From Smithella sp. (lineage in GTDB: Bacteria > Desulfobacterota > Syntrophia > Syntrophales > Smithellaceae): DNA of 36,527 nt. Of this stretch, positions 5,168 to 34,458 are shown in pieces. The translations under genes and the position numbers were made by a program. The DNA lies in contig JBEKJX010000001.1 in the NCBI GenBank assembly GCA_050011015.1, forward strand, positions 1 through 36,527, in the 5' to 3' direction. Below the pieces are notes generated by a model. The model saw only the letters and a program-made list of their open reading frames with translations. It was not told the origin of the DNA and did no database searches. The stretch's first letter is position 1, and the number at the start of each line of letters is the position of its first letter.

Positions 5168-5204
5168 AATAAACAGCAGAATATGAAAAAACATATTGCT
5201 ATTG

Positions 5205-5218
5205 GTACAATTTTGTAC
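5205..5218. promoter_or_regulatory. Palindromic operator candidate GTACAATTTTGTAC (ACA-W4-TGT core)
   Basis: Perfect 6-bp-arm inverted repeat between the putative promoter and the activator start codon. The same core recurs upstream of the other two sigma54 promoters. Confidence 0.5.
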
Positions 5219-5249
5219 AAAAATACTTTCATGGTTAGTTGAGCTGTCT

Positions 5250-6905: not shown

Positions 6906-6979
6906 TGAGGGATCGTCTAAAGGTAGGACAACAGGTTCTGGCCCTGTGAATCGAGGTTCGAGTCCTTGTCCCTCAGCCA
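6906..6979 (+). tRNA. tRNA-Gln (anticodon CTG)
   Basis: Acceptor stem TGAGGGA/TCCCTCA, discriminator G and encoded CCA. Anticodon arm ACAGG-TTCTGGC-CCTGT. T-loop GGTTCGAGTCC. Confidence 0.96.
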
Positions 6980-7016: not shown

Positions 7017-7271
7017 ACTGTCTTTGATTCTGCAGAGTTACCTAATTTGAAAAAAATAGACCCGCTTCTGGTTCTGGGCGGTCCGATGAGTGTAAATGAT
7101 GAGGATAAGATTCCATGGCTTGTTTCTGAAAAACAGTTCATCTGTGAAGCCATTAATTCAGGAAAACCTGTCTTGGGTATTTGTCTTGGTGCGCAACTTA
7201 TTGCAAGTGCTGCAGGCATCAGGATATACCGCAATCCCGAGAAGGAAAAACGATATTTAACATTCAATTAA
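7017..7271 (+). pseudogene. Internal fragment of a type 1 glutamine amidotransferase (GMP-synthase-like GATase1)
   Basis: Reads TVFDSAELPNLKKIDPLLVLGGPMSVNDEDKIPWL...KPVLGICLGAQLIA. In-frame TGA at 7014, no N-terminus, and it stops before the C-terminal HxE catalytic half. Confidence 0.8.
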
Positions 7272-7824: not shown

Positions 7825-7840
7825 TGGCACGACTTTGGCA
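7825..7840 (+). promoter_or_regulatory. Sigma54 (-24/-12) promoter of the mvhD-metF-glt-hdr-metV operon
   Basis: TGGCACGACTTTGGCA has the consensus TGGCACG -24 box and GG-N10-GC spacing, with an AT-rich upstream region. Confidence 0.78.
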
Positions 7841-8020
7841 AGTAACTGTGGTGCTTTGTGGTATTGAGTACAGGTAGAATCAATAACGTCGCAGAAAGCA
7901 AACGCAGGGAGTAGAAACAGGCTAAAATATTTATGTACAGATAAGTAAACCACCAAAGGGCTTTACATGTATTCGTATAGATTACCGGAATAATCCGGTA
8001 CAGATAAGTAGGTGTAAGCG

Positions 8021-8443
8021 TTGAATAATAAAATTCCTAAAATATATCTCTTCCATTGTGCAACAAGCTACGATCAAGAAGAATTGTTACGAAATTATTC
8101 CCCGCAGAATGGTGAAATTAAAATAATTTCGTTACCCTGTTCGGGAAAACTGGATATCCTGTACCTCACTAAAGCGTTTGAAACCGGTGCGGATGGTGCT
8201 GCCATTATGATATGTAAAGAAGGCGAATGCCGTTACATGGAAGGTAATATGCGCGCCAGAAAACGGGTACAGGCCATTGATGACTTACTGCAAGAAGCAG
8301 GGCTCGGAAATGGTCGGACTAAAATAATTCAGATGGGCGACGGGGGCATAACAGGGGCTGTCTATGAATTAGAAGAATTCTTACTTCAAATAAAGACAAT
8401 GGTTGAGAATTCTCCGGCTTTGCAAACATCGCACACGGAATAG
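8021..8443 (+). CDS. mvhD: MvhD/FlpD-family [2Fe-2S] subunit (divergent copy 1)
   Basis: FHC, PCSGK, KAFETGADG and CKEGECRY-EGN-RA-KRV. TTG start. Confidence 0.82.
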   Translation: MNNKIPKIYLFHCATSYDQEELLRNYSPQNGEIKIISLPCSGKLDILYLTKAFETGADGAAIMICKEGECRYMEGNMRARKRVQAIDDLLQEAGLGNGRTKIIQMGDGGITGAVYELEEFLLQIKTMVENSPALQTSHTE

Positions 8444-8479
8444 TTTTTCTTCAGTCCATAACGGTAAGGAGTACAAGGT

Positions 8480-9370
8480 ATGAAACATGATAGCAAATTA
8501 GCAGTTAAAACAAGCGGCAAAGAGTTTATTTTCACTGCCGAGTATTTGCCGCTTGCTGGTACCGAGTTAAAGATCGATCCTAAAATGTTCGGTAGCGGCG
8601 TGACAGCAGTAAACGTCGCTGATAATCACTTTGGTGTATCGATTTCCAGTCTGGCAGCTTCTTTTGCGTTGAGTCAGACTGGCATTGAACCGGTATTGCA
8701 AATTATAACGAGAGACCGCAATCGCATTGCGCTTCAATCCGATCTGCTGGGAGCCGCTTATCTTGGTGTTAAAAACGTTTTGTGTCTTTCAGGGTTTCAC
8801 CAAACTCTTATAGGCTGCAATGAATCAGCCAATGTTTTTGATGTTGATTCCATTCAACTCATTGATATAGTTAAAAAGATGAATAACGGCCAGTTACTGG
8901 ACGGTAAAAAAATCCAGGGGAATTTCTGTATGCTGATTGGTGCCGCCGCTAATCCGAATTTGAAGCCGATGGAACTGAATATTTTGAGATTAAGTAAAAA
9001 AATAGCCGCAGGCGCCGATTTTATTCAGACACAGTCCGTATTTGATGTCGATGCATTTAAAGTCTGGCTGGAAGCCGTTCTCAATGCAGGACTTGCCGAT
9101 AAGACTGCAATTCTCGCCGGTGTTCTGCCGCTCAAAAGCGCTGCCCAGGCTAAAGAATTAGCCGAGACTCATACCGACTTCGTTATTCCTGAAACGATCA
9201 TTGACCGGCTAACAGCTGCCGGTGGTCTTGAGGCTCAAGAAAAAGAGGGCGTTAAAATTGCTGCTGAAATAATAAAGAAACTCAAGGGCCTTCCTGGACT
9301 GAAAGGCGTCCATATTTTATCCGGTGGCAACGAGTCAACTATTAACGAATTATTAGCAGCCGTATCATAA
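8480..9370 (+). CDS. metF: Methylenetetrahydrofolate reductase-like flavoprotein (MetVF type, degenerate active site)
   Basis: FTAE, ADN, RDRNRIALQSDLLGA, VFDVDS, KKIAAGADFIQTQ and GVHI. The canonical GD motif reads GF. RBS AAGGAG. Confidence 0.85.
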   Translation: MKHDSKLAVKTSGKEFIFTAEYLPLAGTELKIDPKMFGSGVTAVNVADNHFGVSISSLAASFALSQTGIEPVLQIITRDRNRIALQSDLLGAAYLGVKNVLCLSGFHQTLIGCNESANVFDVDSIQLIDIVKKMNNGQLLDGKKIQGNFCMLIGAAANPNLKPMELNILRLSKKIAAGADFIQTQSVFDVDAFKVWLEAVLNAGLADKTAILAGVLPLKSAAQAKELAETHTDFVIPETIIDRLTAAGGLEAQEKEGVKIAAEIIKKLKGLPGLKGVHILSGGNESTINELLAAVS

Positions 9371-9388
9371 TAATTGAGACTGAATAAA

Positions 9389-10798
9389 ATGCCGAAGAAA
9401 TATCATATCGAAACAAAAAAAATTGCGCCGAGATTACCGAAAATAGGTAAGTTCGGGGTTGTTGACTGGCGTGAAGATTGCGCCCGGTGTCACAATTGTG
9501 TGAAAAAAGCCTGTGTGTACGACCGCTACCGGCAGGAAATGCAGTATATCAGAGATCTGGATGAATTTAATGCAATGTTCTTTGAATGTATGGGATGTTT
9601 CTCCTGCGTACAGAAATGCACGAAAGGCTTGCTTGCTTTAACCGTAAATCCCAAATACGAACACATGGGCAACGGTTATTTTACACCTGATATTATTCTG
9701 ACAACTTGGAATCAGGCGGAAACCGCCGGCATTCCCGTTTCGGGCGCCGGTTATCGAGGTAAGTTTACAGGCACCGGGTTTGATTCCATGTGGACGGATA
9801 TGTCTGAAATCGTTCGTCCGACCCGCGATGGTATTCATGGGCGGGAATATATCAGCACCGCTGTTGATATCGGAAGAAAACCCAAACATCTTTTATTTGA
9901 AGACAACAAATTGAAGACATCGTTATTACCGCTGGTAGATCTGCCGGTTCCGATTATCATTGATATGTTCCCTGATAAATATCATTTTCCCAACCTACAG
10001 CCGATGTTACTGGCTGTTGCTGTTAAAACCGGCACGATGGTTATCTTTAACTGGGAGCATCATCATCTGCTGGGAAAGTATGAAGAAAAACATTTATCGA
10101 ACATAATTTTCTATCTTGGCAAAGAGACGCCTATGCCAACGGTGGATATCCTTAAACAGTTGCGCCTTATTGAAATCGCCGATAGCGATAAAACCGAGCA
10201 GAGGATCAAAGAGATTAAGGCTGTCAATCCGGGACTGGTTGTGTCAGTCAGAGTTGAACTGGACGCACATGGCGAGGAGAGGTCTATCGCGCTGGCTCAT
10301 CATCCCATCGTTGAAGCTATACATATTGTGTCCGATATAAACGGCAATCAAACAGGAGTAGAAAAACCTAAATTTATAAAGGATATGACACGGAACATCC
10401 ACACGTCTCTTGTAAAAGAAGGCATCCGGGATGAAGTTACCCTGATCGCCAGTGGCGGCATTGCTCTGGCGGAACATATGGCAAAAGAAATTATTTGCGG
10501 TGCGGATGCCATCACGATTAATATGCCGCTCTTAATCGGTCTTGAATGCCGATTTTGTACAAATTGCCGTGATGGTTTTGTCTGTCCGGCGAAGATCGAG
10601 ACGATCACCACCCAATATGGGGTCGGACGTATGACGAATTTAATTGCCGTTTGGCATGACCAGTTGATTGAGGTGATGGGAGCCATGGGGATGCGGGAAG
10701 CCCGCCGTCTGCGTGGTGAAACCGGCCGTGCATTATTTTTTGAAGATCTCGAGGAGGATACTTTTGGAAGGCTTTTTGGCAAAAGAGTCGGGGCTTAA
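9389..10798 (+). CDS. Ferredoxin plus glutamate-synthase FMN-barrel-like protein (degenerate paralog)
   Basis: N-terminal CxxCxxC(x4)C and CxxCxxCxxxC clusters, GAGYRGKF-GTGFD, RDEVTLIASGGI, GADAI and a C-terminal CxxCxxC(x6)CP. Lacks GMSFG, GEGG and QGAKPG. Confidence 0.8.
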   Translation: MPKKYHIETKKIAPRLPKIGKFGVVDWREDCARCHNCVKKACVYDRYRQEMQYIRDLDEFNAMFFECMGCFSCVQKCTKGLLALTVNPKYEHMGNGYFTPDIILTTWNQAETAGIPVSGAGYRGKFTGTGFDSMWTDMSEIVRPTRDGIHGREYISTAVDIGRKPKHLLFEDNKLKTSLLPLVDLPVPIIIDMFPDKYHFPNLQPMLLAVAVKTGTMVIFNWEHHHLLGKYEEKHLSNIIFYLGKETPMPTVDILKQLRLIEIADSDKTEQRIKEIKAVNPGLVVSVRVELDAHGEERSIALAHHPIVEAIHIVSDINGNQTGVEKPKFIKDMTRNIHTSLVKEGIRDEVTLIASGGIALAEHMAKEIICGADAITINMPLLIGLECRFCTNCRDGFVCPAKIETITTQYGVGRMTNLIAVWHDQLIEVMGAMGMREARRLRGETGRALFFEDLEEDTFGRLFGKRVGA

Positions 10799-12344
10799 AG
10801 AAGTCCTGCCTGAAAATACAATTAAAACACTGGTGCCGGACGTTGAGGTGTCCCGTGAAGTCAAGCCGGCGCCCTCACGCTATCGCAATGAGATAGCCAA
10901 ATATATCATCCGCCGGAGCAGTGATTGTAAACTCTGTGGTAAATGTGCTCAGGTTTGTCCGCACGGCGTGCATGTATTGAAACCGGGATATAAATTATTT
11001 TCTGCCCCGCATTTGAACGTTTGTATAGGTCCTTCCTGCCAGAAGACGGATCATTATTGTATAGACCTGTGTCCAAATAAAGCGCTTCAAATGGTTGAAA
11101 ATCCCATGTTGAAGGCGATGGGTGACTATCGTTGGACGCCGGATATGCTCATAGCGACCTGGAAAATGGCGGAAACAGGGGAATCCCCGTCACCCGAATA
11201 CGGGTACGAATATGAAACCGGAGCTTCCGGAGGCGGGTTTGACCGGTTGCGATTCAAATTTCCTGAAAAACCACCCGTTGAATTACGAGACGATGAAATC
11301 GACACCAGTATTGTGCTCAACAGGCGGAACGATGGCCGGCCACAGGTGAAAATCGATGTTCCCTGGTATGGCGGAGGCATGTCTTTCGGTTCCGTCAGTA
11401 ACGTAGTGCAGCTTTCCAAGGCGCGCGCGGCCACCGCGTTTAATACCTTTACCTGTACCGGTGAAGGCGGTTACATGGAACGCATGAAGCCGTATGATGA
11501 TCACGTCATCACCCAAATCGCTACAGGTCTTTTCGGGGTTCGTGAAGAGACGATCCAACGTGTCCGTATTGTTGAATTTAAATATGCGCAAGGGGCCAAG
11601 CCCGGTCTGGGTGGCCATTTGTTAGCCGATAAAGTTACGCCGGCAGTCGCCAGGATGCGTGAAACCGTTCTGGGTATTTCACTTTTTTCACCCTTTCCGT
11701 TTCATAGCGTTTACTCCATTGAAGATCATCAGAAACACATGGACTGGATCAAGCACGTCAACCGGCGAACACTGATTGCCACCAAGGTCTCTACGCCTAA
11801 TGATGTGGATATGGTTGCTGTGGGCAGCTATTCCGCCGGTACCCATATCGTGCATCTGGATGGTGGCTACGGTGGAACCGGAGCAGCGCCAGACATTGCC
11901 AAGAAGAACATTGCCATGCCGATTGAGTATAGTATTGTCAAAGTCCATCGATTTCTGGAACAGGAGGGCATTCGTGATAAGGTTACGCTGATTGTTAGCG
12001 GTGGATTACGGACATCTCATGACATCGCCAAAGCGATCGCATTGGGGGCCGATGGTGTTGTTGTGGGCACTTCCGAACTGGTTGCGCTGGGTTGCATAAG
12101 ATGTTCACGTTGTGAGAGCGGTCGCGGTTGCCCGCGCGGTATTGCCACGACCGACGCAGAGCTTGCGAAAGATGTTGATCTTGAATGGGGCACGCAGCGG
12201 ATTCTCAATCTATATGCTGCTTGGCGAAAGGAACTTGTGGAAATATTGAAACGATTCGGACTGCGGAGTGTGAGTGAGTTACGGGGGCGCACGGATCTTT
12301 TAATGCACCTTGATTATACCAATGATGTGGAGATTCATAGATGA
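10764..12344 (+). CDS. gltB: Glutamate synthase FMN-binding (synthase) subunit with N-terminal ferredoxin (GltB2/GlxD/archaeal GltS type)
   Basis: GGGMSFGS, TGEGG, QIATGLFGV, EFKYAQGAKPGLGGHL, SPFPFHSVYSIED, DGGYGGTGAAP, SGGLR, AIALGADG and CxxCxxC(x5)CP-GIAT. TTG at 10764 follows GAGGAGG by 6 nt, but the start is uncertain. Confidence 0.9.
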   Translation: MEGFLAKESGLKEVLPENTIKTLVPDVEVSREVKPAPSRYRNEIAKYIIRRSSDCKLCGKCAQVCPHGVHVLKPGYKLFSAPHLNVCIGPSCQKTDHYCIDLCPNKALQMVENPMLKAMGDYRWTPDMLIATWKMAETGESPSPEYGYEYETGASGGGFDRLRFKFPEKPPVELRDDEIDTSIVLNRRNDGRPQVKIDVPWYGGGMSFGSVSNVVQLSKARAATAFNTFTCTGEGGYMERMKPYDDHVITQIATGLFGVREETIQRVRIVEFKYAQGAKPGLGGHLLADKVTPAVARMRETVLGISLFSPFPFHSVYSIEDHQKHMDWIKHVNRRTLIATKVSTPNDVDMVAVGSYSAGTHIVHLDGGYGGTGAAPDIAKKNIAMPIEYSIVKVHRFLEQEGIRDKVTLIVSGGLRTSHDIAKAIALGADGVVVGTSELVALGCIRCSRCESGRGCPRGIATTDAELAKDVDLEWGTQRILNLYAAWRKELVEILKRFGLRSVSELRGRTDLLMHLDYTNDVEIHR

Positions 12345-14956
12345 ATAACGGGATGATCGAAAAACTTTTAGATTCCCGACAAAGACTGATTGAGGAATTG
12401 CACATTCCTTACCCTACTTACAAAGGGGAGGAAGAAGGTGGTTGCGGTGTCGTTGGCTTTTGTGCCACTGTGCCGGTCGCTGCCCGTCATATTCATGAGC
12501 CGTCCAAACAGATGCATAACCGTGGTAACGGTAAAGGCGGCGGAATTGCGGCGTTAGGTTTTATACCGGAGCAGCTTGGCGTCACCCGGGATGTTCTGGA
12601 TAATTATTATATGGTGCATATCGCGTTCTTGGATAATAACATCAGGCAGGAGCTTGAAAGTAAATACATCACCCCTTATTTCGAAATTAAGACTTCCTGC
12701 CAGATGGATACCGTTGCCGACTGGACGACGATTCCTTCATTGGAAGCCAAGCCTCCGGATGTCATGCGTTATTTTGTTCGCGTGAAGCCGGAAGCGCTGG
12801 ACGCCTTCATTACAAAAAATGAATTAAGTGGAATGAAACGTGAAGAGGCAGAAGGCGAATTCTTAAGCCAGCAAAGCGTTACGCTGAATCAGGAGTATTA
12901 CGCTTCACTCGGTGATAAAAAGGCCTTCGTGATGTCTTATGGAAAGAATATCATGATTTTGAAGGTCGTCGGATATGCGGAGTCTATTACAGATTATTAT
13001 AAGATCGACGACTTAAAAGCGCATGTCTGGATTGCCCATCAGCGGTTTCCAACCAAAGGTCGGGTCTGGCATCCAGGTGGCGCTCACCCCTTCGGAGCGA
13101 TAAATACAGCTCTGGTTCATAACGGAGACTTTGCCAACTACAGTTCCGTCAGCGAATATCTTGCACAGCGTCATATTTATCCGCAATTCCTGACCGATAC
13201 AGAGGTATCTGTTCAGATATTTGATTTGCTGGACAGGACTTATCACTATCCACTGGAGTATATTATCGAGGCTCTGGCACCCACGACCGAATTGGATTTC
13301 GACAGGCTCTCCAAAGAGAAACAGTCCATCTACCGTGCAATTCAGGCAACTCATATTCATTCTTCCCCTGACGGTCCCTGGTTCTTTATAATTGCCCACA
13401 CCCTGGGGACAGCCGACAAATTTCAACTCATGGGCATTACCGATACATCCATGCTCCGTCCGCAGGTCTTCGCTTTTGCCGACGGTGAAGTGCAGGTCGG
13501 CTTGATTTGTTCTGAAAAACAGGCCATCGACGCAACTTTGCTCAGCATGTCAAAAGATGACAGCCGCATCTGCCCGGTCGCCGACAAATACTGGAATGCC
13601 CGGGGCGGCAGTTCGACGGATGGCGGGTCGTTCATTTTTACTCTTGAAAAAGACCAGGCCGGCAAATACAGGATGAATTGTACCGACAAATTCGGTGTTC
13701 CTGTACAATTACCATCCGGATCAGAGATCGGAAATTTATCTGAAGAAATAAAACGATCCGGTACTCACACCGATAAGATTGAGAAAGGTATTCGCGAACA
13801 CTTCGATGCCGGCAGCCAGATGGTCTTCCGTTATTTTACTGAAAACATTGCCGACTGGTCCGTTGCCGATGTCGGTTTTGCCTGCGAAACCGTTATTGCC
13901 TTGGTTAAGGATTCCAATCGTTTTGCTGAGGCGATTGAAATATTAACGCTTCTTAACGACCGGCGATACGGCACCGGTACGAAGAAACGTAAGCACATCC
14001 TGCAAATTGTTCGCACGGCTTTGCGGCGATTATTTGCCCTTATTCCGTTGATCGGGGAAACATCAGCCAGTGAGTTCCGGCAGATCAATTATCAAACCAA
14101 AAAACTTTTAAGAGAACCGCATATCGGTGAGACAACCCTGGTGATTGATACGCTTGGCTTTCCGCCCGAAGGAAACGAATCGAATGCCTCGCTTTTAGTA
14201 GACGGTTACATGAAGGGTTGGAAACATTTCATCGTTTATAACTGTGCCGGACAGCGTTTTACCGGTTGCGGCCTGGGGCCACACACTGAGGGCGTTACAA
14301 TCGATGTTTACGATAGTGACGGCGATTATCTCGCTTCCGGCATCGACGGTTTAACCATTACCGTTCATGGCAATGCCCAGGACCAATTAGGTCAGATCAT
14401 CAAAGAAGGTAAGCTGGTGATTCACGGTGATACCGGACAAACATTCTTATACGGTGCAAAAGGGGGTTCCATTTTTATTCTGGGTAATGCTGCCGGCCGG
14501 CCTCTGATTAATTCCGTGGGTAAGCCAAGGGTTGTGATTAATGGCACCTGCCTGGATTTCCTTGCTGAATCTTTCATGGCGGGCGATGTCTTTACGGGCG
14601 GCGGTTTTGTTATTTTGAACGGTATAACATTTGATGATCAAGGCAACATCGTTACTCTGAAAGAACCCTATCCCGGAGGCAACCTGTTCTCGCTTGCTTC
14701 CGGCGGCGCTATATACGTACGCGATCCTCATAAGTATCTTATCCGGGAGCAGTTGAACGGCGGTAATTTCTTCAAGATGACGGATCAGGACTGGGAGACG
14801 ATTTTGCCCTATCTTCAGGAGAACGAGCGTTTGTTCGGGATTAGAGTAGATGACCTGCTGACGGTTGACGGCAAACATAAGCGGCCCGGTCAAGTCTATC
14901 GAAAAGTTGCTCCGGACAAACTGTCGGCCAACATCCAAATCGAGTCAGACGAATAG
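12341..14956 (+). CDS. gltB: Glutamate synthase glutamine-amidotransferase (Ntn) domain fused to GXGXG beta-helix domain (GltB1+GltB3)
   Basis: Propeptide then Cys35 (GCGVVG), HNRG, AHQRFPT, AHPF, VHNGD, TDTE, DGPW and LRP. C-terminal GQRFTGCG, HGNAQD, HGDTG, GNAAGR and GGAIYVR repeats. ATGA-type overlap with the upstream gene. Confidence 0.9.
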   Translation: MNNGMIEKLLDSRQRLIEELHIPYPTYKGEEEGGCGVVGFCATVPVAARHIHEPSKQMHNRGNGKGGGIAALGFIPEQLGVTRDVLDNYYMVHIAFLDNNIRQELESKYITPYFEIKTSCQMDTVADWTTIPSLEAKPPDVMRYFVRVKPEALDAFITKNELSGMKREEAEGEFLSQQSVTLNQEYYASLGDKKAFVMSYGKNIMILKVVGYAESITDYYKIDDLKAHVWIAHQRFPTKGRVWHPGGAHPFGAINTALVHNGDFANYSSVSEYLAQRHIYPQFLTDTEVSVQIFDLLDRTYHYPLEYIIEALAPTTELDFDRLSKEKQSIYRAIQATHIHSSPDGPWFFIIAHTLGTADKFQLMGITDTSMLRPQVFAFADGEVQVGLICSEKQAIDATLLSMSKDDSRICPVADKYWNARGGSSTDGGSFIFTLEKDQAGKYRMNCTDKFGVPVQLPSGSEIGNLSEEIKRSGTHTDKIEKGIREHFDAGSQMVFRYFTENIADWSVADVGFACETVIALVKDSNRFAEAIEILTLLNDRRYGTGTKKRKHILQIVRTALRRLFALIPLIGETSASEFRQINYQTKKLLREPHIGETTLVIDTLGFPPEGNESNASLLVDGYMKGWKHFIVYNCAGQRFTGCGLGPHTEGVTIDVYDSDGDYLASGIDGLTITVHGNAQDQLGQIIKEGKLVIHGDTGQTFLYGAKGGSIFILGNAAGRPLINSVGKPRVVINGTCLDFLAESFMAGDVFTGGGFVILNGITFDDQGNIVTLKEPYPGGNLFSLASGGAIYVRDPHKYLIREQLNGGNFFKMTDQDWETILPYLQENERLFGIRVDDLLTVDGKHKRPGQVYRKVAPDKLSANIQIESDE

Positions 14957-14986
14957 GTGTTTTATTCCAATGAGAGAGTATCGAAA

Positions 14987-15556
14987 ATGACAACAAGAAT
15001 TACAAAAAGGAAAGCCACTGGAGATCTTTTTAAAGCCGTCCAGGAAAAAGCAGATGTTAATTTAAGTGTCTGCTACCAGTGTAAGAAATGTTCTATCGGC
15101 TGTCCTGTAGCCGACCAGACCGAATCGCCGCCTTCTGAGATTATCCGAAGACTGCAACTTGGCGCCGGTGACGAATTGTTACAAACGGACCTCATTTGGA
15201 CATGTCTATGCTGTGAAACATGTTATGCCAGGTGTCCTAATCAGATAAACTTTCCCGCTGTGATTGATGCCTTAAAGTTCATCGCTTTGGAAAAAGGGGT
15301 TGCCAGACCGGAGGGTAATGCGCCTTTATTTAACCATTTATTTTTGAACACGGTAAAGTCTTACGGACGCGTTTACGACCTGCAGGCTATTGCCATGTAT
15401 AAACTGAGAACCGGCAACTTAAAACAGGATACGGATAAATTCCCTTCGATGCTTAAAAAAGGCAAAATAGCAATTCTACCGCCGTCGGGTGGCGACAAAG
15501 CTAAAGTGAAGCGTATCTTCAAAAAGACAGAGCAAAACAGAGGAACAGGAAAATGA
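14987..15556 (+). CDS. hdrC: Heterodisulfide reductase subunit C-like 2x[4Fe-4S] protein
   Basis: CYQCKKCSIGCP and IWTCLCCETCYARCP. Lies directly before hdrB. Confidence 0.9.
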   Translation: MTTRITKRKATGDLFKAVQEKADVNLSVCYQCKKCSIGCPVADQTESPPSEIIRRLQLGAGDELLQTDLIWTCLCCETCYARCPNQINFPAVIDALKFIALEKGVARPEGNAPLFNHLFLNTVKSYGRVYDLQAIAMYKLRTGNLKQDTDKFPSMLKKGKIAILPPSGGDKAKVKRIFKKTEQNRGTGK

Positions 15557-16428
15557 AATACGCATATTATCCAGGGTGCTCAGCTCATTCAACTGCTCGC
15601 GACATGCATGAATCATGTCTGGCTGTAGCGAAAGCACTTGATATTGAACTGAATGAAATCAAGGGCTGGACATGCTGCGGTGCCAGTGCCGCTCACCAGA
15701 CCGACCGGAATTTGGCTGTCTCCTTGGCCTCTGCCAACCTCCTCTTGGCTCAAAAAATGGGCATGGACATGGTGGTTAATTGCGCCGCCTGTTATAACCG
15801 CTCAAAGGTTGCCAACTATGAAATTAAAAATTCCGAAGAGATAAGACAATCCGTTGCTGACAGTCTCGGTGAAATTTATGATGGATTGGTTCCGGTACGG
15901 CACTTTGTTGAGATACTTTTAAAAGACGTTGGACCGGCTAAATTGCGAAAGAAAATTATAAATCCGCTGAAGAATCTTAAAGTGGCTGCCTATTACGGTT
16001 GTTATCTGGTCCGTCCGCCGGAAGCAACCAACTTTGACGATCCGGAGAATCCTACAATTCTTGAAAGCCTGATCGATGTAACAGGCGGTACGAATGTGGA
16101 GTGGTCGGGTAAAGTGGATTGCTGCGGCGGTATGCAAAATCTTACACGGACAGAAATCACTGTTCGGCGGTCGGCGGCAGTCATAGAGATGGCACAGGCT
16201 GCAGGTGCCGAGTGCATCGTCGTTGCCTGTCCGATGTGTCAAATCAGCCTTGATGTCAGACAGGCTGACATGGAAAAGATTCTCGGCAAGAAATATGATA
16301 TGCCGGTTATTTATCTTACACAGTTACTCGGTCTTGCTCTTGGTATTTCGCCTAAAGAGCTCGGGTTGAATAAGCTCATGGTAAGTCCGGCAGCCATATT
16401 AAATAAAGTAAAAGCAGGAATCTCGTAA
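15553..16428 (+). CDS. hdrB: Heterodisulfide reductase subunit B-like protein (two CCG domains)
   Basis: YYPGC...WTCCGA...CAAC and YYGC...DCCGG...ACPMC, plus PVIYLTQLLGLALG. Confidence 0.93.
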   Translation: MKYAYYPGCSAHSTARDMHESCLAVAKALDIELNEIKGWTCCGASAAHQTDRNLAVSLASANLLLAQKMGMDMVVNCAACYNRSKVANYEIKNSEEIRQSVADSLGEIYDGLVPVRHFVEILLKDVGPAKLRKKIINPLKNLKVAAYYGCYLVRPPEATNFDDPENPTILESLIDVTGGTNVEWSGKVDCCGGMQNLTRTEITVRRSAAVIEMAQAAGAECIVVACPMCQISLDVRQADMEKILGKKYDMPVIYLTQLLGLALGISPKELGLNKLMVSPAAILNKVKAGIS

Positions 16429-16476
16429 AAACGGCTTATTGATGATAGACGATTAAAGACTACTTAAGGTTACGAT

Positions 16477-19400
16477 ATGCATAAAAGTGAAAAAAAATTA
16501 ACAGGTGCGGTTCTGGTTCAGGGCGGTGGTATCGCCGGCATCCAGGCAGCCCTCGACCTCGCTGATTCAGGGTTTAAAGTCTATCTTGTCGAGCGTGACG
16601 CGGCCATCGGCGGCATGATGGCTCAACTTGACAAGACCTTCCCGACCGGCGATTGCGCTACCTGTATTGTATCCCCCAAACTGGTCGAATGTGCTCGCAA
16701 TATCAATATAGAGATCCTCACCCTTTCTGAACTCGTTGGTTTGGAGGGGGAACCGGGTAATTTTAAGGCTAAAATCAAGGTTTCTCCAAGATATGTCGAT
16801 GAAGCGAAATGCAATGCCTGCGGTCAGTGTACGGATGCCTGTCCGGTCAATGTGCCCAATCCATTTGACTGTGAAATGGGTACCCGAAAAGCAATCGCCA
16901 AGCTCTATGCTCAAGCAACGCCTAACAAATTTGGTATTCTAAAGCTTGGCCATTCTCCCTGCAAAGTGGAATGTCCGGCGAACATTAATATCCAGGGCTA
17001 CATTCAATTAATCAGGAAGAAGGAATATCTCAAGGCCGTTAATCTCATCCGGGAGCGAAATCCGCTCTCCGCCATTTGCGGACGGGTTTGCACTCACCCT
17101 TGCGAATTAAAATGCACACGCAATAATATTGATTCATCCGTTTCCATCAGATTATTAAAGCGTTTCGCTTCGGACCAGGAAATGAGCATGGTCAAGTCCG
17201 GTGAACTGGCTCTTCCGGAAGAGAAGATTTCATCCTCGGGCGCCAAAAAAGTTGCCGTCGTGGGCGCCGGACCTGCTGGTCTTACCGCAGCCGCTGACCT
17301 GGCGGACAGGGGCTATGCAGTGACCGTTTATGAATCGACGTCAGCAGCGGGCGGCATGCTGCGATGGGGAATTCCCGCTTACCGTCTTCCGAAAGATGTA
17401 TTGGATTACGAAATTGAGCTTATTCGCCGCAAAGGCATAAAATTTGTTTATAACACCCGTATCGGTATCGATATTTCCATGGATAAACTGCGTCAGGAAA
17501 ATGCGGCCGTCTTTATCAGTATTGGTACCCAGAGCAGCCGGACGCTGGGAGTTGAGGGTGAAGACAAAACAGGGATCACCTATGGTCTGGAGTTCCTGCG
17601 TCAGGCCGGAGACAAGGAGAACCGTCCCAAACTAAACGGCAAAGTCGTGGTGATCGGCGGCGGCAACGTTGCTGTTGATGTAGCCCGCTCTGCTTTACGT
17701 CTTGGCGCCGATTCCGTCGAGATGGTGAGTTTGGAACAGCGCTACGAGATGCCGGCTTTGCCCGAAGAGGTTACCGCCGCGCTTGAAGAGAATATAAAAA
17801 TTAACAACGGCTGGGGTCCGAAGCGCATTCTCGGAAACGATAAAGTCAATGCCATCGAACTGAAACGCTGTACCAGAGTCTTTGATGAAACAGGGAGATT
17901 CAGCCCCACTTACAATGATAATGAGACAACGACATTAAACGCCGATCAAATCATCGTTGCCATCGGTCAGGCGATCGATAAAGTTTCGCTCAGTAACATG
18001 GGAGCGGCAACAGAACGTAATTTTTACAAGGTCGATAAGGTCACGCTGGAAACATCCGTAAAAGGCGTATTTGCCGGTGGTGACAATGTTCCGGGCAGCG
18101 CTTCTGTTATCGGTGCTGTTGGCGCGGGCAAGCGGGCGGCGGAATCGATCGATCGTTATCTCAAAGGCGAGGACATGCTGTCCGCCAGATTTGAGTCTAC
18201 AATCAAACCAATTGCTCCGGAATTTCTGCCTGAAACCAAGGGCATGGAAAAGAAACCGTCTGCCGAGCAGGCAATCCTGCCCGTTGCTCAACGTGCCAAT
18301 AATTTTAACGAGGTTGAAGAAGGTCTTACGGAAGAAGCTGCCCTGGCAGAAGCCGAGCGTTGTCTCAATTGTGCCCTGTGTTCCGAGTGTCAGCAATGCG
18401 TTGCTGCCTGCGAACAGCATGCTGTTGACCATTCGATGACGGAAAAGATCATCGAGCTTAATGTAGGCTCTGTTATCCTGACACCCGGTTTTGAAGAATT
18501 TGATGCTGCGAAAAAAGGCGAATACGGCTATGACCGGTATCCTAATGTGATCACCAGTGTGCAGTTCGAGCGCATGCTCTCCGCTTCCGGACCGTTCGAT
18601 GGCCATGTTATCCGGCGATCCGACGGTCAACCTGCCAAACGTGTCGCCTGGATACAGTGCGTTGGCTCACGGGATACTCGTTGCGGCAATGAGTATTGCT
18701 CTTCAGTTTGCTGCATGGTTTCCACCAAACAATCGATGATCGCCGCCGACCACTTGCCCGGACTGGAAGCAACCATCTTTTACATGGACATCCGGGCTCA
18801 TGGTAAAGATTTTGATCAGTATTACGAGCGGGCAAAAAAACAGGGTGTAAATTACATCAAGTGTATACCGTCCCGCATCATCCAGATGCCCGGGACGAAA
18901 GACCTGCGGGCGTCATTCTATAACGAAGCCAATCAATTGCAGGAAAAGGACTTCGACCTGGTTATTTTATCTGTCGGCATGGAACCAGGCTTATCCGCCG
19001 TGGATACGGCCAAACGTTTGGCTATCGAGCTGAATGAATACGGTTTCTGTTCCACCGATCGATTTGCGCCGTTGAATACCTCCCGGCCGGGAGTGTTTGT
19101 CGGCGGGGCTTTCCAGGAACCGAAGGATATCCCGGAAACAGTTACCCAGGCCAGCGCCGCGGCTTCAATGGCTATGGAATTGTTATCATCCGCCCGCAAC
19201 ACCCTGATTACCAAAGCAGTCTACCCGGATGAGCACGATGTCACCGACGAGCAGCCCCGGATAGGCGTTTTCATCTGCCACTGCGGTCGCAACATTGCTT
19301 CCGTGATTGATGTGGAAAAAGTGGTTCACGCCGTGGCTCAGGATCCGAATGTCATCTTTGCCACCCATACGTTATTCACCTGTTCAGACACCAGTCTGGT

Positions 19401-20946
19401 CAATATACGTGACGCCATCCGCGATAACCGGCTCAACCGTGTTGTTGTGGCTTCCTGCACACCGCGGACTCACGAACCTATCTTCCGGGATACACTCCGT
19501 GAAGCGGGCTTAAACCAGTATTTATTCGAAATGGCAAACATCCGTGACCAATGTTCCTGGGTACACTCGACGATGCCGGAGCAGGCCACTCAGAAAGCGG
19601 TCGAACTGGTGAAGATGTCTATTGCCCGGGCACGTCGATTAGTTCCATTACAGGGTTCTTATTCCAACGTCGTCCAGAATGGTCTGGTTATCGGCGGCGG
19701 TGTCAGCGGCATGACAGCAGCTCTTTCTCTGGCCGAACAGGGATTCAAGACGCACTTAATCGAAAGGTCGGATAAACTGGGCGGTAATTACCTTAATCTG
19801 CACTACACACTGGAACATGAAGATGTTGGCGGTTTCCTCACTGCCTTGATCAAACGTGTTCAGAGCAATCATAATATTGTCCTGCACATGAATAGTGAAG
19901 TAAAGAACGTGGCCGGTTTTGTGGGTAATTTTGAGGTTGCTCTTAACGAGCATAATAAAGAAACTATTGTGCCATGCGGTGCAATCATTGTCGCTACCGG
20001 CGCCAAACCGGCGAACACTAAAGATTTTCAATACGGCCAGTCCGCCAGTATCATGACTCAGTCGGAATTGGAGAATGCCTTACAAACAGGCACTTTTTCT
20101 TCTTCGAACCGCAATATTGTGATGATACAGTGTGCCGGTTCTCGGAATGAAGAGAGACCCTATTGCAGTCGTATTTGCTGCACAATGGCGGTCAAGAATG
20201 CCCTCAAATTGAAGAAGCAGAATCCCGATACGAACATCATGGTCCTCTATCGCGATATCCGTACCTATGGCTTCCGCGAAAAATATTATAAACAGGCTCG
20301 TGAGGCCGGTGTTATCTTTATGAGATATGAAAAAGAAAATCCGCCGGTTATTTCTGCTAATTACGATCTGGTTACGCTGAAGAGTCCTGACTTTCCGGAG
20401 CAGATAGAGATCGAAACCGATGCCATTGTGCTTAGCACCGGAGTCGATGCCTTGAAGGATAACCGTAAGCTGGCAGATATGCTCAAGGTACCGTTGAATG
20501 CCGATGGCTTCTATGTCGAGGCTCACCTTAAATTGCGGCCCGTCGAGTTTGCCACGGAAGGTATTTACCTTTGCGGTTTGGCCCATTCCCCCAAGTTGAG
20601 CGATGAGAATATCTCGCAGGCTAAAGCGACTTCATCCCGGGCGGCGACCATCCTTTCCAAGACCCGACTCGAAGTCGGCGGGCAGGTGTCGTGCGTAGAT
20701 CAGGAGAAATGTATTTCCTGTTTAACCTGCGTCAGGGCGTGTCCTTATCATGCGCCGCTTGTTAATATTAACAATAAAGCGGAAATTGCCGCCGCCGCGT
20801 GCATGGGCTGTGGTATATGTGCTTCGGAATGTCCGGCACACGCCATCCATCTGCGAAATTTCGAGTCCGATCAGTTCCAGGATATACTGAAGACTTTATT
20901 ATCAGAACCGGGTGAAGAGAATACACCGGTATCTGTACCGAAATAA
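16477..20946 (+). CDS. hdrA: Large HdrA-family flavoprotein (HdrL): HdrA module with inserted GltD/NfnB-like NAD(P)H oxidoreductase and a second HdrA module
   Basis: GGGIAG...IGGMMAQLDKTFPTGDC. GltD-like insert: PCKVECP, CGRVCTHPCE, GAGPAG, GGGNVAVD. Then WIQCVGSR, YCSSVCC, FICHCG, ASCTPRTHE, NIRDQCSW, second GGGVSG, QCAGSR, YCSRICC and a C-terminal 2x[4Fe-4S]. Confidence 0.93.
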   Translation: MHKSEKKLTGAVLVQGGGIAGIQAALDLADSGFKVYLVERDAAIGGMMAQLDKTFPTGDCATCIVSPKLVECARNINIEILTLSELVGLEGEPGNFKAKIKVSPRYVDEAKCNACGQCTDACPVNVPNPFDCEMGTRKAIAKLYAQATPNKFGILKLGHSPCKVECPANINIQGYIQLIRKKEYLKAVNLIRERNPLSAICGRVCTHPCELKCTRNNIDSSVSIRLLKRFASDQEMSMVKSGELALPEEKISSSGAKKVAVVGAGPAGLTAAADLADRGYAVTVYESTSAAGGMLRWGIPAYRLPKDVLDYEIELIRRKGIKFVYNTRIGIDISMDKLRQENAAVFISIGTQSSRTLGVEGEDKTGITYGLEFLRQAGDKENRPKLNGKVVVIGGGNVAVDVARSALRLGADSVEMVSLEQRYEMPALPEEVTAALEENIKINNGWGPKRILGNDKVNAIELKRCTRVFDETGRFSPTYNDNETTTLNADQIIVAIGQAIDKVSLSNMGAATERNFYKVDKVTLETSVKGVFAGGDNVPGSASVIGAVGAGKRAAESIDRYLKGEDMLSARFESTIKPIAPEFLPETKGMEKKPSAEQAILPVAQRANNFNEVEEGLTEEAALAEAERCLNCALCSECQQCVAACEQHAVDHSMTEKIIELNVGSVILTPGFEEFDAAKKGEYGYDRYPNVITSVQFERMLSASGPFDGHVIRRSDGQPAKRVAWIQCVGSRDTRCGNEYCSSVCCMVSTKQSMIAADHLPGLEATIFYMDIRAHGKDFDQYYERAKKQGVNYIKCIPSRIIQMPGTKDLRASFYNEANQLQEKDFDLVILSVGMEPGLSAVDTAKRLAIELNEYGFCSTDRFAPLNTSRPGVFVGGAFQEPKDIPETVTQASAAASMAMELLSSARNTLITKAVYPDEHDVTDEQPRIGVFICHCGRNIASVIDVEKVVHAVAQDPNVIFATHTLFTCSDTSLVNIRDAIRDNRLNRVVVASCTPRTHEPIFRDTLREAGLNQYLFEMANIRDQCSWVHSTMPEQATQKAVELVKMSIARARRLVPLQGSYSNVVQNGLVIGGGVSGMTAALSLAEQGFKTHLIERSDKLGGNYLNLHYTLEHEDVGGFLTALIKRVQSNHNIVLHMNSEVKNVAGFVGNFEVALNEHNKETIVPCGAIIVATGAKPANTKDFQYGQSASIMTQSELENALQTGTFSSSNRNIVMIQCAGSRNEERPYCSRICCTMAVKNALKLKKQNPDTNIMVLYRDIRTYGFREKYYKQAREAGVIFMRYEKENPPVISANYDLVTLKSPDFPEQIEIETDAIVLSTGVDALKDNRKLADMLKVPLNADGFYVEAHLKLRPVEFATEGIYLCGLAHSPKLSDENISQAKATSSRAATILSKTRLEVGGQVSCVDQEKCISCLTCVRACPYHAPLVNINNKAEIAAAACMGCGICASECPAHAIHLRNFESDQFQDILKTLLSEPGEENTPVSVPK

Positions 20947-20956
20947 GGAAATGATG

Positions 20957-21406
20957 ATGAACACGAATAATTTCGAACCTAAAATAGTAGCGTTTTGCTG
21001 CCACTATTGCGCCTATGCCGCAGCAGATCTGGCAGGCTCAGGGCGTTTACAATATCCGCCCAACATCCGTATCATCCGGTCGCCATGTACCGGCAGACTG
21101 GAGATTGACTTTTTCATGAAGGCCTTTGAGGCCGGTGCCGATGGTGTGCTGGTTGCCGGCTGTGAGGAAGGCAGTTGTCACTTTAAAGAAGGTAATTATC
21201 TGGCCAAGCGCCGGGTAAATACCACCAAGCAGTTATTAGAGGAAGCCGGTCTGGAACCGGAACGACTGCGCATGGTGAATGTGAGCGCCGCCAGTTCCCA
21301 GAAATTTGTTGCGTATGTCCGCGACATGGTTGAGACCATTGTTAAGCTTGGTCCCGCACGTAATAAGAAAACTACCCCTAAAGAACAAACAGGAGCAATA
21401 AAATGA
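20957..21406 (+). CDS. mvhD: MvhD/FlpD-family [2Fe-2S] subunit (canonical copy 2)
   Basis: FCCHYCAYAAADLAG-RLQYP, PCTGR, GADGV, GCEEGSCHF-EGN. Start at one of three tandem ATGs (20951, 20954, 20957). Confidence 0.92.
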   Translation: MNTNNFEPKIVAFCCHYCAYAAADLAGSGRLQYPPNIRIIRSPCTGRLEIDFFMKAFEAGADGVLVAGCEEGSCHFKEGNYLAKRRVNTTKQLLEEAGLEPERLRMVNVSAASSQKFVAYVRDMVETIVKLGPARNKKTTPKEQTGAIK

Positions 21407-22071
21407 TCGTTGCCGAAAGAAAAACCATTCCTGAGCTTGTCGAGATTTTAAAACCGCATAAGAAAATACTGGTGCTGGGCTGTGGCACCTGCGTCACCGT
21501 CTGCCTTTCTGGAGGTGAACGGGAGGTAAGTATCATTTCGTCTGCACTGCGTATTGCGTCCCGCGTTCAAGGTTTAAGCTTTGAAATCGATGAACTCACC
21601 ATTGAGCGCCAGTGTGATAACATATTTATTGAGCAGGCGGCGGAAGCTATCCAGAAAGCAGATGCAGTGTTGTCAACGGCCTGCGGTGCCGGCGTTCAGG
21701 CGATTGCCGAGCGCTTTCCCGAGAAGCCGGTTTATGCCGGATTGAACACTACCTTCATCGGCATCCTCGAGGAACGCGGTGTATGGACAGAGAAATGTGC
21801 CGCTTGCGGCGCCTGTATTCTGCATAAATACGGCGGTATATGTCCGGTGACACGCTGTGCCAAGCGCATGCTGAACGGACCATGCGGGGGATCCCGTGAA
21901 GACAGGTGTGAAGTGCGACCGGACAGACCCTGCGCGTGGCAACTTATTTACAAGAGGCTAAAGGACATCAACCAGCTCGAAAGACTCAAAGAAATGGAGC
22001 CGGCCAAGAACTGGAATTCAAGCCTGAGCGGTGGTCCTAGAATGTTAATAAGGGAAGACCATAAAATATAG
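21403..22071 (+). CDS. metV: MetV, Fe-S/Zn small subunit of MetVF methylene-THF reductase
   Basis: GCGTCVTVC-GGE, ERQC, ACGAGVQ, CAACGAC, CPVTRCAK-LNGPCGG, CEV and CAW. Confidence 0.9.
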   Translation: MIVAERKTIPELVEILKPHKKILVLGCGTCVTVCLSGGEREVSIISSALRIASRVQGLSFEIDELTIERQCDNIFIEQAAEAIQKADAVLSTACGAGVQAIAERFPEKPVYAGLNTTFIGILEERGVWTEKCAACGACILHKYGGICPVTRCAKRMLNGPCGGSREDRCEVRPDRPCAWQLIYKRLKDINQLERLKEMEPAKNWNSSLSGGPRMLIREDHKI

Positions 22072-22259: not shown

Positions 22260-22374
22260 AGAACATGACCCATTAAGCTTATAATAATATTTGTTGAATG
22301 TTAATAAGAAATATGATCGAAAATATTTTATTGGGATAAGCAATAAAATATTTCAATAAATGAATGGAGGAATT

Positions 22375-24546: not shown

Positions 24547-24560
24547 TAACAATATAATAT

Positions 24561-24597
24561 GATGAAGGGAACGGTTAAAACCGTTCCCTTCATCTTT
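24561..24597 (+). terminator. Intrinsic terminator hairpin after glnA
   Basis: GATGAAGGGAACGGT-TAAA-ACCGTTCCCTTCATC is a perfect 15-bp stem, followed by a short TTT. Confidence 0.8.
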
Positions 24598-24708
24598 AAT
24601 CATTGACGAGACCGAAAAAAAAAGATAAACACTTCCCACCAATGAGGCGTGTGAATTACCTGAATAAGCCTCAAGATATTAGTTCTGCCGGGGGATAAGT
24701 TCCTGACA

Positions 24709-27377: not shown

Positions 27378-27456
27378 TAAGGAAGTGTTCTTTTAACATC
27401 CCCAAAAGGGATGGGAAAATCAGGTAATTGAAAAATTCAACACATTGGTAAAATAA

Positions 27457-30400: not shown

Positions 30401-30660
30401 ACGCTCAAGTTATTTTTAAAGTCAGTGAAGGCAGGCCTCACATCGTTGATTTGATAAAGAATGGCGATATCCAAATGGTAATCAATACGAGCCTGGGGCG
30501 TAAATCTTCGAAAGATGCTTATCATATCAGACGGGGCGCGCTTATTTATAATATTCTTTACACCACGACTATCGCGGGAGCGCGCGCTTTGTGCGAAGCG
30601 GTAGCGGCAATTATTGCCGAGGACTGGCAAGTATGTCCGTTGCAGGAGTACCATAAATGA
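27457..30660 (+). CDS. carB: Carbamoyl-phosphate synthase large subunit
   Basis: MPKRND...[61 protein letters not shown] and a C-terminal MGS domain. GTG start. Confidence 0.97.
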
Positions 30661-30784: not shown

Positions 30785-30867
30785 ATATATAATTAAAAGA
30801 TGGGATGAGAATTTTTTAAGAACTTGTGTTTTAATCAATCCGCTTGAGCGGATAAGAGAGAGGCTAT

Positions 30868-34456: not shown

Positions 34457-34458
34457 CT

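Follow-up and report, generated by a model that had tools for sequence, protein, structure and literature searches.

A split glutamate synthase with a putative Hdr-type electron-input module in Smithella sp. and other lineages

Introduction

Glutamate synthase (GOGAT) is the main entry of nitrogen into biomass. To our knowledge, the known forms are linked only to NAD(P)H, to ferredoxin and, putatively, to F420. In GltBD a GltD module feeds the FMN subunit, and in the split, archaeal type the domains of GltB are separate proteins. Here we describe a ten-gene operon on a contig of 36,527 nucleotides from a metagenome-assembled genome (MAG) of Smithella sp. (GenBank assembly GCA_050011015.1, contig JBEKJX010000001.1, positions 1-36,527, forward strand; this whole stretch is called the window). 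Genes of a split GOGAT are interleaved in it with genes of the Hdr, MvhD and Met families, and the ten genes probably encode one cytoplasmic Fe-S flavoprotein system, a split GOGAT fed by an Hdr-type electron-input module.

The closest described systems each contain a part of this set. In Moorella thermoacetica, a methylenetetrahydrofolate (methylene-THF) reductase complex is made up of MetFV, HdrABC and MvhD, according to a passage of PMC6085437 that cites Mock 2014 and Bertsch 2015. Excerpts of PMC2702500 describe HdrL of Desulfobacterium autotrophicum HRM2 as a large HdrA-type protein with an NADH-binding part resembling the GOGAT small subunit and with mvhD next to it; its loci are discussed there with dsr, fdh and other hdr genes, and those excerpts make no link to gltB. 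The NADH-GOGAT of Clostridium acetobutylicum, GltAB, has a ferredoxin-NAD+ reductase side activity, as stated in part of PMC9365771. It is a precedent for electron exchange between GOGAT and ferredoxin, but its two subunits are conventional and neither is of the Hdr, MvhD or Met kind. A putative F420-linked GOGAT is mentioned in a passage of a preprint (10.1101/2021.09.25.461819).

The operon resembles each of these and differs from each. As in the split archaeal type, the amidotransferase, FMN and GXGXG modules are separate, the FMN subunit has a two-cluster ferredoxin domain and there is no separate GltD; here, however, domains 1 and 3 are fused in a protein of 871 aa, a second FMN-subunit paralogue that lacks the substrate loop is always present, and there are dedicated redox modules. 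The six families of the Moorella complex (MetF, MetV, MvhD, HdrA-type, HdrB and HdrC) are all co-encoded, but they are interleaved with GOGAT genes, a 1489-aa HdrL takes the place of HdrA and there are two MvhD paralogues. The MetF-like protein, called MetF* here, is without the Asp-equivalent, the context is one of nitrogen metabolism and the genome has a separate methylene-THF reductase (MTHFR), which does not fit an MTHFR of the Wood-Ljungdahl pathway. The window's HdrL has the same build as that of HRM2 and is likewise followed by mvhD, whereas locus L079, from a D. autotrophicum MAG, has the Glt core with MvhD-MetV-MetF and no Hdr genes. HdrL carries the same 2x[4Fe-4S], FAD and NAD(P)H module as GltBD and NfnAB, but the module is inserted in an HdrA-type flavoprotein and not bound directly to the FMN subunit as in GltBD.

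The preliminary description of the window, made from its sequence alone, knew of no characterised complex of this kind. This agrees with a search of the full-text literature, with most subscription journals and supplements outside its scope, which found no published description of a cluster combining GOGAT with Hdr, HdrL, MvhD, MetV, MTHFR or bifurcation. On split or archaeal-type GOGAT that search gave only PMC9365771 as relevant, and no such cluster is described in the available parts of PMC12054007, 10.1101/2021.09.25.461819, PMC5736913, PMC7325909, PMC5947623, PMC5947290 and PMC7117923. Thus, the pieces (split GOGAT, Moorella complex, HdrL, GltD/Nfn) are known separately, and their union, which we found described in no paper, appears to be new.

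The operon and its conservation as a block

Ten co-oriented open reading frames (ORFs) on the + strand, from 8021 to 22071, encode in order MvhD1 (MvhD-like), MetF* (MetF-like), GltB2a, GltB2b, GltB1/3, HdrC, HdrB, HdrL, MvhD2 and MetV, as assigned from Pfam and NCBIfam profile matches of the window's ORFs. Successive genes are spaced by 36, 3, -86, -4, 0, -4, 48, -35 and -4 nt. The tight, partly overlapping arrangement given in the preliminary description is therefore accurate, with gaps of -86 to +48 nt, as is its statement that the window has no stand-alone gltD, none being present among the window's ORFs and profile matches. Between the glt and hdr genes the stop codon of GltB1/3 abuts the start of HdrC (a 0-nt gap) and -4 overlaps flank this junction, which indicates translational coupling across the boundary.

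A scan of one genome per species with GltB1/3 yielded 219 relatives; 80 loci were kept and compared with the window's proteins by tblastn. Forty-eight of them are fully visible, with at least 5 kb upstream and at least 9.4 kb downstream, and the remaining 32, being too short, were not counted. All ten genes stand in the window's order in 41 of the 48. Two loci (L064, L068) are without HdrCB only, three (L049, L076, L079) consist of MvhD-MetV-MetF-B2a-B2b-B1/3 with no Hdr genes, L047 has a rearranged Met set and L042 is anomalous. The records with the full set are labelled Smithella/Syntrophorhabdus, Dehalococcoidia, Phycisphaerae/Sedimentisphaerales, FCPU426, Leptospiraceae, Bacteroidales, Bryobacteraceae/Acidobacteriia and Myxococcales, labels that span at least seven phylum-level groups. 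A protein collection contains more than 7,658 relatives of the GltB1/3 fusion at E <= 1e-20.

In the flanks of six loci from other phyla no gene recurs (ALAD, cellulase, gamma-glutamyltranspeptidase, a LysR regulator, a molybdopterin enzyme, AOR and others were seen), so that the block ends exactly at MvhD1 and MetV. Among 20 ORFs flanking these six loci, 10 of which have no Pfam match, there were no nitrogen-assimilation genes of the kinds found beside the window's operon (glutamine synthetase (GS), carAB, purF, NifA-like). Trees of concatenated Glt and of concatenated Hdr proteins were made for the window and 29 loci, 12 of the 41 having been dropped for broken high-scoring segment pairs. 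They have 20 of 27 splits in common, with zero strongly supported conflict, compared with a mean of 0.125 common splits after shuffling of labels. The Dehalococcoidia copies adjoin the window's clade in both trees, which suggests that the block was transferred between phyla in one piece. The conservation of gene order and the congruence of the trees, which answer the question of gene neighbourhood raised in the preliminary description, support the view that the glt and hdr/met genes are one conserved, co-inherited unit, not a chance neighbourhood.

Small shares of the stretch are contained in six metatranscriptome runs. In four of these, from four studies and compared at >=90% identity, 26, 29, 20 and 28 of 30 bins are covered. 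Contigs bridge B2a/B2b, B2b/B1/3, B1/3-HdrC-HdrB (X2 record 12; X3 record 21) and HdrL-MvhD2-MetV; X3 record 21 shows no differences, and a 260-nt contig over the B1/3-HdrC junction is identical to the window. The contigs that match at >=90% identity, mostly from relatives, come from wetland, peat and bioreactor RNA libraries.

The glutamate synthase core

GltB1/3 (12341-14956; 871 aa; GATase_6 and GXGXG matches) consists of a 34-residue leader, an Ntn glutaminase domain beginning at Cys35, a helical linker and a GXGXG beta-helix (PF01493, 5.7e-13) as expected of a GOGAT. Leader removal that exposes an N-terminal Cys occurs in bacterial GltB. Invariant in 28 aligned sequences are EGGC35GV, H233-Q-R235-x-P-T, N261-G262 and T285-D286-T-E, which, by comparison with PurF, GlmS and GltB, we take to be the nucleophile, the Arg and Asp that bind glutamine, and the oxyanion hole of an Ntn amidotransferase. 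GltB1/3 thus has, in C35, H233-Q-R235, N261-G262 and D286, the Ntn (class II) glutaminase residues of a GOGAT. By profile its amidotransferase domain matches only GATase_6, GlmS and PurF, and a phmmer search against solved structures gave only FwdC, for the beta-helix part; the domain is recognised by its motifs and fold. In a fold search with its AlphaFold2 (AF2) model (pLDDT 75, pTM 0.66) the top matches were glutamate synthase alpha chains (6s6s_A, E 1.4e-10; 7mfm_G, 1ea0_A and 1ofd/1ofe), in alignments that span both amidotransferase and beta-helix, with GlmS and PurF ranking next.

GltB2b (10713-12344; Glu_synthase, 2.4e-90, and Fer4) is the predicted catalytic subunit for FMN and 2-oxoglutarate. 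It aligns over ~350 residues to the FMN domain of Azospirillum GltB (819-1170, E 3e-52), including the QGAKPGxGG loop and the Cys cluster, and thus presents the FMN TIM barrel and 2-oxoglutarate/FMN loop of a GOGAT. Its motif C-x2-C-x2-C-x5-CP has four Cys compared with three in GltB, and a two-cluster ferredoxin domain is found at the N-terminus. PF04898, the central domain of the bacterial alpha subunit, is matched only below threshold inside GltB2b (22.1 vs 22.8 bits), which fits a split-type GOGAT and not a canonical GltB. In three loci labelled Syntrophorhabdus (L009, L013, L014) a further gene with 25-27% identity to GltB2b lies ~1.5-2 kb 3' of MetV.

GltB2a (9374-10798, with a probable start at the ATG at 9389) has a weak Glu_synthase match (1.4e-12) and Fer4. 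In BLASTP it is 23% identical to GltB2b (E 3e-24), with the GAKPG substrate loop gapped; it keeps the N-terminal eight-Cys motif, 2x CxxCxxCxxx(x)C, the C-terminal Cys motif and the GGI...GAD phosphate-binding region, and residues 121-160 form an invariant loop. Outside the barrel its AF2 model (pLDDT 63.8) is of low quality, with residues 1-101 and 121-160 under 50, and its Foldseek matches are to generic FMN/IMPDH barrels. GltB2a belongs to the Glt core in every variant of the cluster, a correction to the earlier view, and is best explained as a paralogue that has lost the substrate loop and would serve as an Fe-S, perhaps flavin, partner of GltB2b. Its gene and that of GltB2b overlap out of frame by 86 nt (10713-10798). 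Their tblastn matches overlap in distant loci too, for example in L023, where B2a ends at 8446 and B2b starts at 8385, and the long overlap seems real and conserved. The intact motifs support the prediction that the glt part has the catalytic equipment of a glutamine-dependent glutamate synthase.

The redox subunits

HdrL (16477-20946; 1489 aa) matches the HdrA2 profile with 969 bits and has a GltD-like region at residues 158-664. Four pieces of it align with the HdrA of methanogens (5odc_A), namely residues 9-155 with 143-289, 634-850 with 292-510, 925-1079 with 2-156 and 1336-1466 with 508-641. The insert between the first two pieces (~158-633) matches NfnA/NfnB, dihydropyrimidine dehydrogenase (DPD) and GltD among PDB structures, and the 2x[4Fe-4S], FAD and NAD(P)H module of GltD, NfnB and DPD aligns at residues ~158-565. 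Dinucleotide-binding motifs of the FAD type lie at residues 16, 263 and 1073, and GGGNVA is at 394. With a thioredoxin-reductase-like HdrA FAD domain, N-terminal, inserted and C-terminal Fe-S domains, a GltD-like part and mvhD next to it, the protein has the composition of the HdrL class, and it resembles two HdrA units, covalently fused and rearranged, that have received an NAD(P)H-oxidising NfnB/GltD-like insert. The motif in the insert is of the form GxGxxA, which hints at NADPH; GXGXXA is read as an NADP+ motif, in the contrast implied by a published rule. In the relevant passage of PMC12054007 that rule associates GXGXXG with NAD+.

HdrC (14957-15556) has HdrC-like Fer4 matches and two CxxCxxCxxxC motifs, and HdrB (15553-16428; TIGR03288, 6.9e-66) has two CCG domains with both motifs complete, at residues 9 and 150, so that the two [4Fe-4S] motifs and two CCG motifs of an HdrBC pair are present. 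MvhD1 (8021-8443; 140 aa; PF02662, E 9.7e-23) is a divergent member of the MvhD/FlpD family. Four Cys (C13, C40, C65, C70) are invariant in an alignment of 13 sequences, and it probably holds a [2Fe-2S] cluster. MvhD2 (20912-21406, probably starting at the ATG at 20951) is a typical MvhD (FlpD/MvhD Pfam, 1.3e-51). MetV (21403-22071) is a Cys-rich Fe-S protein with the MetV C-terminal domain (DUF5981, PF12225, 2e-37); it has 13 invariant Cys and the highest conservation among the subunits (74% mean column identity), and phmmer found no meaningful homologue of it among solved structures.

MetF* (8480-9370; PF02219, E 8.5e-29) is a paralogue with the fold of the MTHFR flavoproteins. It keeps a TRDRNR motif. 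In a profile alignment to human and E. coli MTHFR it has Phe where the Asp of the LRGD motif aligns, and thus lacks the full set of catalytic MTHFR residues. The catalytic role of that Asp rests on work with E. coli MetF. Of 59 loci with HdrL in view, 43 have F or Y at the Asp-equivalent position and 9 have D there; of 13 with no HdrL in view, 11 have D. These counts are phylogenetically non-independent. At least one other MTHFR gene is present in this MAG and in each of five other genomes searched. This genome's own MTHFR is a MetF-MetV fusion that keeps an SGD motif, and the cluster's MetF was therefore ruled out as the sole MTHFR of the organism. The fusion gene is split over two overlapping contig ends (G000 C242, L084:1357-2238, and C146, L086:1417-2241). 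Since all six genomes have other MTHFR genes, MetF* would be a dedicated paralogue, in agreement with a GOGAT-linked function.

A complex prediction of GltB2a with MvhD1 and MetV gave a median score of 0.44 (runs 0.55, 0.44 and 0.39), and the best control reached 0.01, as did the prediction with MetV replaced. Partner pLDDT is >=80 and the runs agree in >=41% of contacts. When the tool was calibrated, 58 of 80 solved complexes and 2 of 110 mismatches passed the mark; only 7 of the 80, but both mismatches, did so with scores <=0.60. The structure prediction proposed in the preliminary description thus lends weak support to a contact between GltB2a and MetV.

Exchange of redox partners on one core

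GltB1/3 is present in 26 of 151 sampled genomes of the window's GTDB order and in 116 of 401 sampled species of its phylum. Nineteen loci of the order were fetched and typed. Five have the full Hdr/Met set (type A; one of them, L112, is cut off and was typed from GltB1/3, HdrC and HdrB alone), two have MvhD-MetV-MetF only (type B) and two are cut off. In the other ten, type C, Met, Mvh and Hdr genes are all absent and B2a-B2b-B1/3 is immediately preceded by the gene of a VAO-type protein (L094, L095, L097, L101-L106 and L110; for example L095:15288-17180, minus strand). This partner, of 617-630 aa, combines FAD_binding_4 and FAD-oxidase_C with a fused 2x[4Fe-4S] domain; as its substrate we would guess a 2-hydroxyacid, for instance D-lactate or D-2-hydroxyglutarate. 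A PPDK_N-domain protein is frequently found near type-C loci.

The exchange can be seen within one genus at one locus. In G020 and G040, of the same genus as the window, type C lies between an orthologous NifA-like gene (87-89% identity) and GS type III (GS-III, 91%) or carA (92%), and in G129, also of the same genus, type A occupies the orthologous nitrogen locus. All three types have NifA-like, GS-III, carA/B and purF genes as recurrent neighbours. Such an arrangement, with one core and three alternative redox partners at the same nitrogen locus, is expected if the partners are electron-input modules, and it fits the view that these modules are interchangeable. MvhD1, MetF* and MetV accompany the Glt core even without Hdr genes (L049, L076, L079, L107, L109); the operon thus cannot be reduced to an Hdr-Met module of the Moorella type inserted into a GOGAT. 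In the type-A locus of G129 (L096, G129:C7, 11411-14024), GltB1/3 lies in two overlapping frames (residues 1-526 and 512-871), which is either a frameshift or an assembly error in this 9-contig genome.

Other glutamate-forming and GltD-like genes

Both Glu_synthase matches of this MAG lie in the window. Searches of three further genomes, G003 (a close relative, with a contig of 2.78 Mb), G040 and G129 (each 98% complete), found neither another GOGAT nor a glutamate dehydrogenase (GDH) of the ELFV type. The cluster-free genomes G103 and G059, of the same family, have another Glu_synthase ORF of 557 aa together with GDH. The best explanation is that in this lineage the operon would be the only recognisable route to glutamate.

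Two GltD-like ORFs occur elsewhere in the genome, one after a PyrK-like gene on contig C30 and one fused to NuoF on C32. The stand-alone gene on C30 was considered as the missing beta subunit and rejected, since it follows the PyrK-like gene in an Nfn-type arrangement; its product looks like half of an NfnAB pair. The C32 protein, a NuoF-GltD-like fusion of 990 aa (G000 C32, L089), adjoins the large subunit of an [FeFe]-hydrogenase. The organism appears rich in ferredoxin-linked, possibly bifurcating enzymes.

Promoter, regulator and neighbouring genes

The preliminary description had placed the operon behind a sigma54 promoter. A -24/-12-like element, TGGCACGACTTTGGCA (7825-7840, + strand), 181 nt 5' of the first gene, has one mismatch to TGGCAC-N5-TTGCA, and the exact consensus occurs nowhere in the window. 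The site is identical in L003, L005, L006 and L007, comparable sites stand 5' of the operon in Acidobacteriota loci that also have an upstream NifA-like gene, and of the loci of the window's order 9 of 10 of type C and 2 of 4 of type A have one ahead of their first gene. The loose pattern GG-N10-GC was set aside as uninformative (27 matches vs 20.7 expected), and a generic promoter and terminator scan gave nothing interpretable within the operon.

Upstream, as noted earlier, a NifA-like sigma54 activator is encoded (GAF-AAA-HTH; 5196-6833, + strand), with GAF, Sigma54_activat and HTH_8 domains; its top NCBIfam model is NifA (TIGR01817), with 496 bits just below the cut-off of 528.85. Downstream on the + strand, domain matches identify GS type III, carA, guaA, carB and a purF-like amidotransferase (22360-32295). 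The first of these, the glutamine synthetase of the preliminary description, is a 728-aa GSIII_N-type enzyme (22360-24546) whose gene follows MetV by 288 nt. In the window's lineage the operon is best explained as part of a sigma54/NifA-like nitrogen regulon, which is probable as a part of the whole reading.

A tRNA-Gln(CTG) gene (6906-6979) lies between the NifA-like activator and the operon, as does a remnant of a class-I glutamine amidotransferase of ~70 codons (7059-7271), which reads ...LVLGGPMSVNDEDKIPW...GKPVLGICLGAQL..., with stops just upstream and no start codon. At the end of the window (33461-36525) a BtuC/FecCD-type permease, an ABC ATPase and a TonB-dependent receptor, with a B12 receptor as best match, probably form a corrinoid uptake system.

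Proposed mechanism and alternative explanations

In the proposed system, GltB1/3 would release ammonia from glutamine at an N-terminal Cys bared by removal of the 34-residue leader, and GltB2b would reduce at its FMN the 2-iminoglutarate formed from this ammonia and 2-oxoglutarate. NAD(P)H, the likely source of electrons, would be oxidised at the NfnB/GltD-like insert of HdrL. Electrons could then pass from the HdrA-type flavin and clusters of HdrL to MvhD2, to MetV and to the ferredoxin-like domains of GltB2a and GltB2b, and MetF* and MvhD1 would be further cofactor-bearing subunits. The proposal that the Hdr module is the electron-input arm of GOGAT was made in the preliminary description, and is upheld by the conservation of the block, the GOGAT motifs and the exchange of modules; its picture of a repurposed Hdr module has to be modified, as the operon is not a simple Moorella-type splice.

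It is possible, though doubtful, that the enzyme is also bifurcating. The flavin of HdrL would then split electron pairs of NAD(P)H, sending one branch downhill via MvhD and MetV to the GOGAT core and the other uphill to ferredoxin or to an acceptor bound to HdrBC, roughly as 2 NAD(P)H + Gln + 2-oxoglutarate + Fd(ox) -> 2 NAD(P)+ + 2 Glu + Fd(red), where Fd is ferredoxin. Bifurcation is plausible since an HdrA-type flavin, the ferredoxin-facing domains of HdrA and an intact HdrBC are present. NADPH-GOGAT dissipates ~50 kJ/mol, which would be enough for the reduction of ferredoxin with NADH, at a cost of 25-35 kJ.

A number of observations weigh against an Hdr-fed GOGAT. All ten subunits are known here from their genes, from which we infer the physical complex, the donor, the order of carriers and the coupling to ferredoxin or to a substrate of HdrB. 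Counts across loci, such as the 41 of 48, are phylogenetically non-independent. No ELFV GDH or further Glu_synthase was found in this MAG, which is 79.7% complete. The preliminary description had asked for a gltD or canonical gltB elsewhere; nothing canonical was found in this MAG, G003, G040 or G129, but a canonical GltB of ~1500 aa stands alongside the cluster in four of five other-phylum genomes (Phycisphaerales, Acidobacteriota, Bacteroidales and D. autotrophicum), three of which also have GDH. In those genomes the cluster would be redundant as a GOGAT or does something more. The intact CCG motifs of HdrB hint at some disulfide-type substrate, and the GltB2a-MetV score is a weak pass. MetF* retains Glu21 (E21) and the TQ motif, and the Asp is retained in full clusters of the Bryobacteraceae type, so that MetF* may carry out folate chemistry. 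The sigma54-like site is by itself non-significant (0.78 matches expected; at least one in 52 of 100 shuffles), one RNA contig begins 67 nt upstream of it, and contigs of RNA libraries may contain DNA and cannot prove a single transcript.

As an alternative, the operon might encode two uncoupled enzymes, of which one would be a ferredoxin-dependent split GOGAT and the other a methylene-THF reductase of the MetFV-Hdr-MvhD kind known from Moorella. Each of the six gene families of that complex is indeed represented, the Glt core exists without met or hdr genes in type C, and the N-terminal ferredoxin-like domains of B2a and B2b could accept electrons from free ferredoxin. This is unlikely, however: the met and mvhD genes are split around the glt genes, in an interleaved order kept in 41 of 48 loci with unrelated flanks, and MvhD-MetV-MetF stay with the Glt core where Hdr is absent, in the five loci given above. 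The other MTHFR genes of all six genomes, the Phe of MetF* here and its variability elsewhere, and a context of nitrogen assimilation rather than the Wood-Ljungdahl pathway also argue for one system, as does, weakly, the predicted GltB2a-MetV contact (0.44 vs 0.01 for the best control). It is quite unlikely, too, that an active MetF* links C1 and nitrogen metabolism, with oxidation of methyl-THF as an electron source or methylene-THF as a second high-potential acceptor in addition to 2-iminoglutarate. The MTHFR fold and the conserved Glu21, TRDRNR and TQ motifs speak for activity, and the Asp is kept in all clearly Hdr-less clusters as well as in those of the Bryobacteraceae type. Methyl-THF as donor is most plausible in the Hdr-less type B, and Desulforapulum autotrophicum, a type-B carrier, uses the acetyl-CoA pathway. 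Yet the window and 43 of 59 HdrL-linked loci have F or Y at the Asp-equivalent position, type-C clusters function without any MetF, and catabolic C1 flux and anabolic nitrogen flux would differ by orders of magnitude.

The remaining alternative is that the core is a GltB-like amidotransferase/FMN enzyme with another substrate, carrying out an N-methylglutamate-synthase-like or other reductive amination. Redundancy with canonical GltB in four of five other-phylum genomes would be accounted for in this way; the amidotransferase domain matches by sequence only the GATase_6, GlmS and PurF profiles, and the invariant loop 121-160 of GltB2a has no role assigned. The FMN subunit argues in the other direction, as GltB2b has the QGAKPGxGG region and ~350 residues aligned with solved GOGATs, and the best folds for GltB1/3, in both amidotransferase and beta-helix, are GOGAT alpha chains. 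In four genomes the cluster is the sole Glu_synthase system and no GDH was found, and GS-III, carAB, purF, guaA and NifA-like genes recur as neighbours. Genes for GmaS and N-methylglutamate dehydrogenase, partners of MgsABC, were not seen among the window ORFs scanned, no dedicated Mgs profile having been run. Another substrate is therefore very unlikely, and a GOGAT fed by an Hdr-type module continues to be the probable explanation.

Significance

If an HdrA-type module does feed this GOGAT, the enzyme would receive its electrons in a new way, and, if bifurcating, it would be a new class of energy-conserving enzyme in anabolism; types B and C would in that case combine the same core with other donors and would not bifurcate. 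With many relatives, 116 of 401 species in the phylum and matches in environmental RNA, the system cannot be called rare. Many orphan hdr, mvhD and metFV genes of non-methanogens would gain a role through it, and it cautions that metF, metV and hdr genes in MAGs are not safe markers of the Wood-Ljungdahl pathway. The three donor modules found on one core are a natural experiment on the swapping of redox arms. If bifurcation should prove true, energy-starved anaerobes would regain low-potential electrons each time nitrogen is assimilated.

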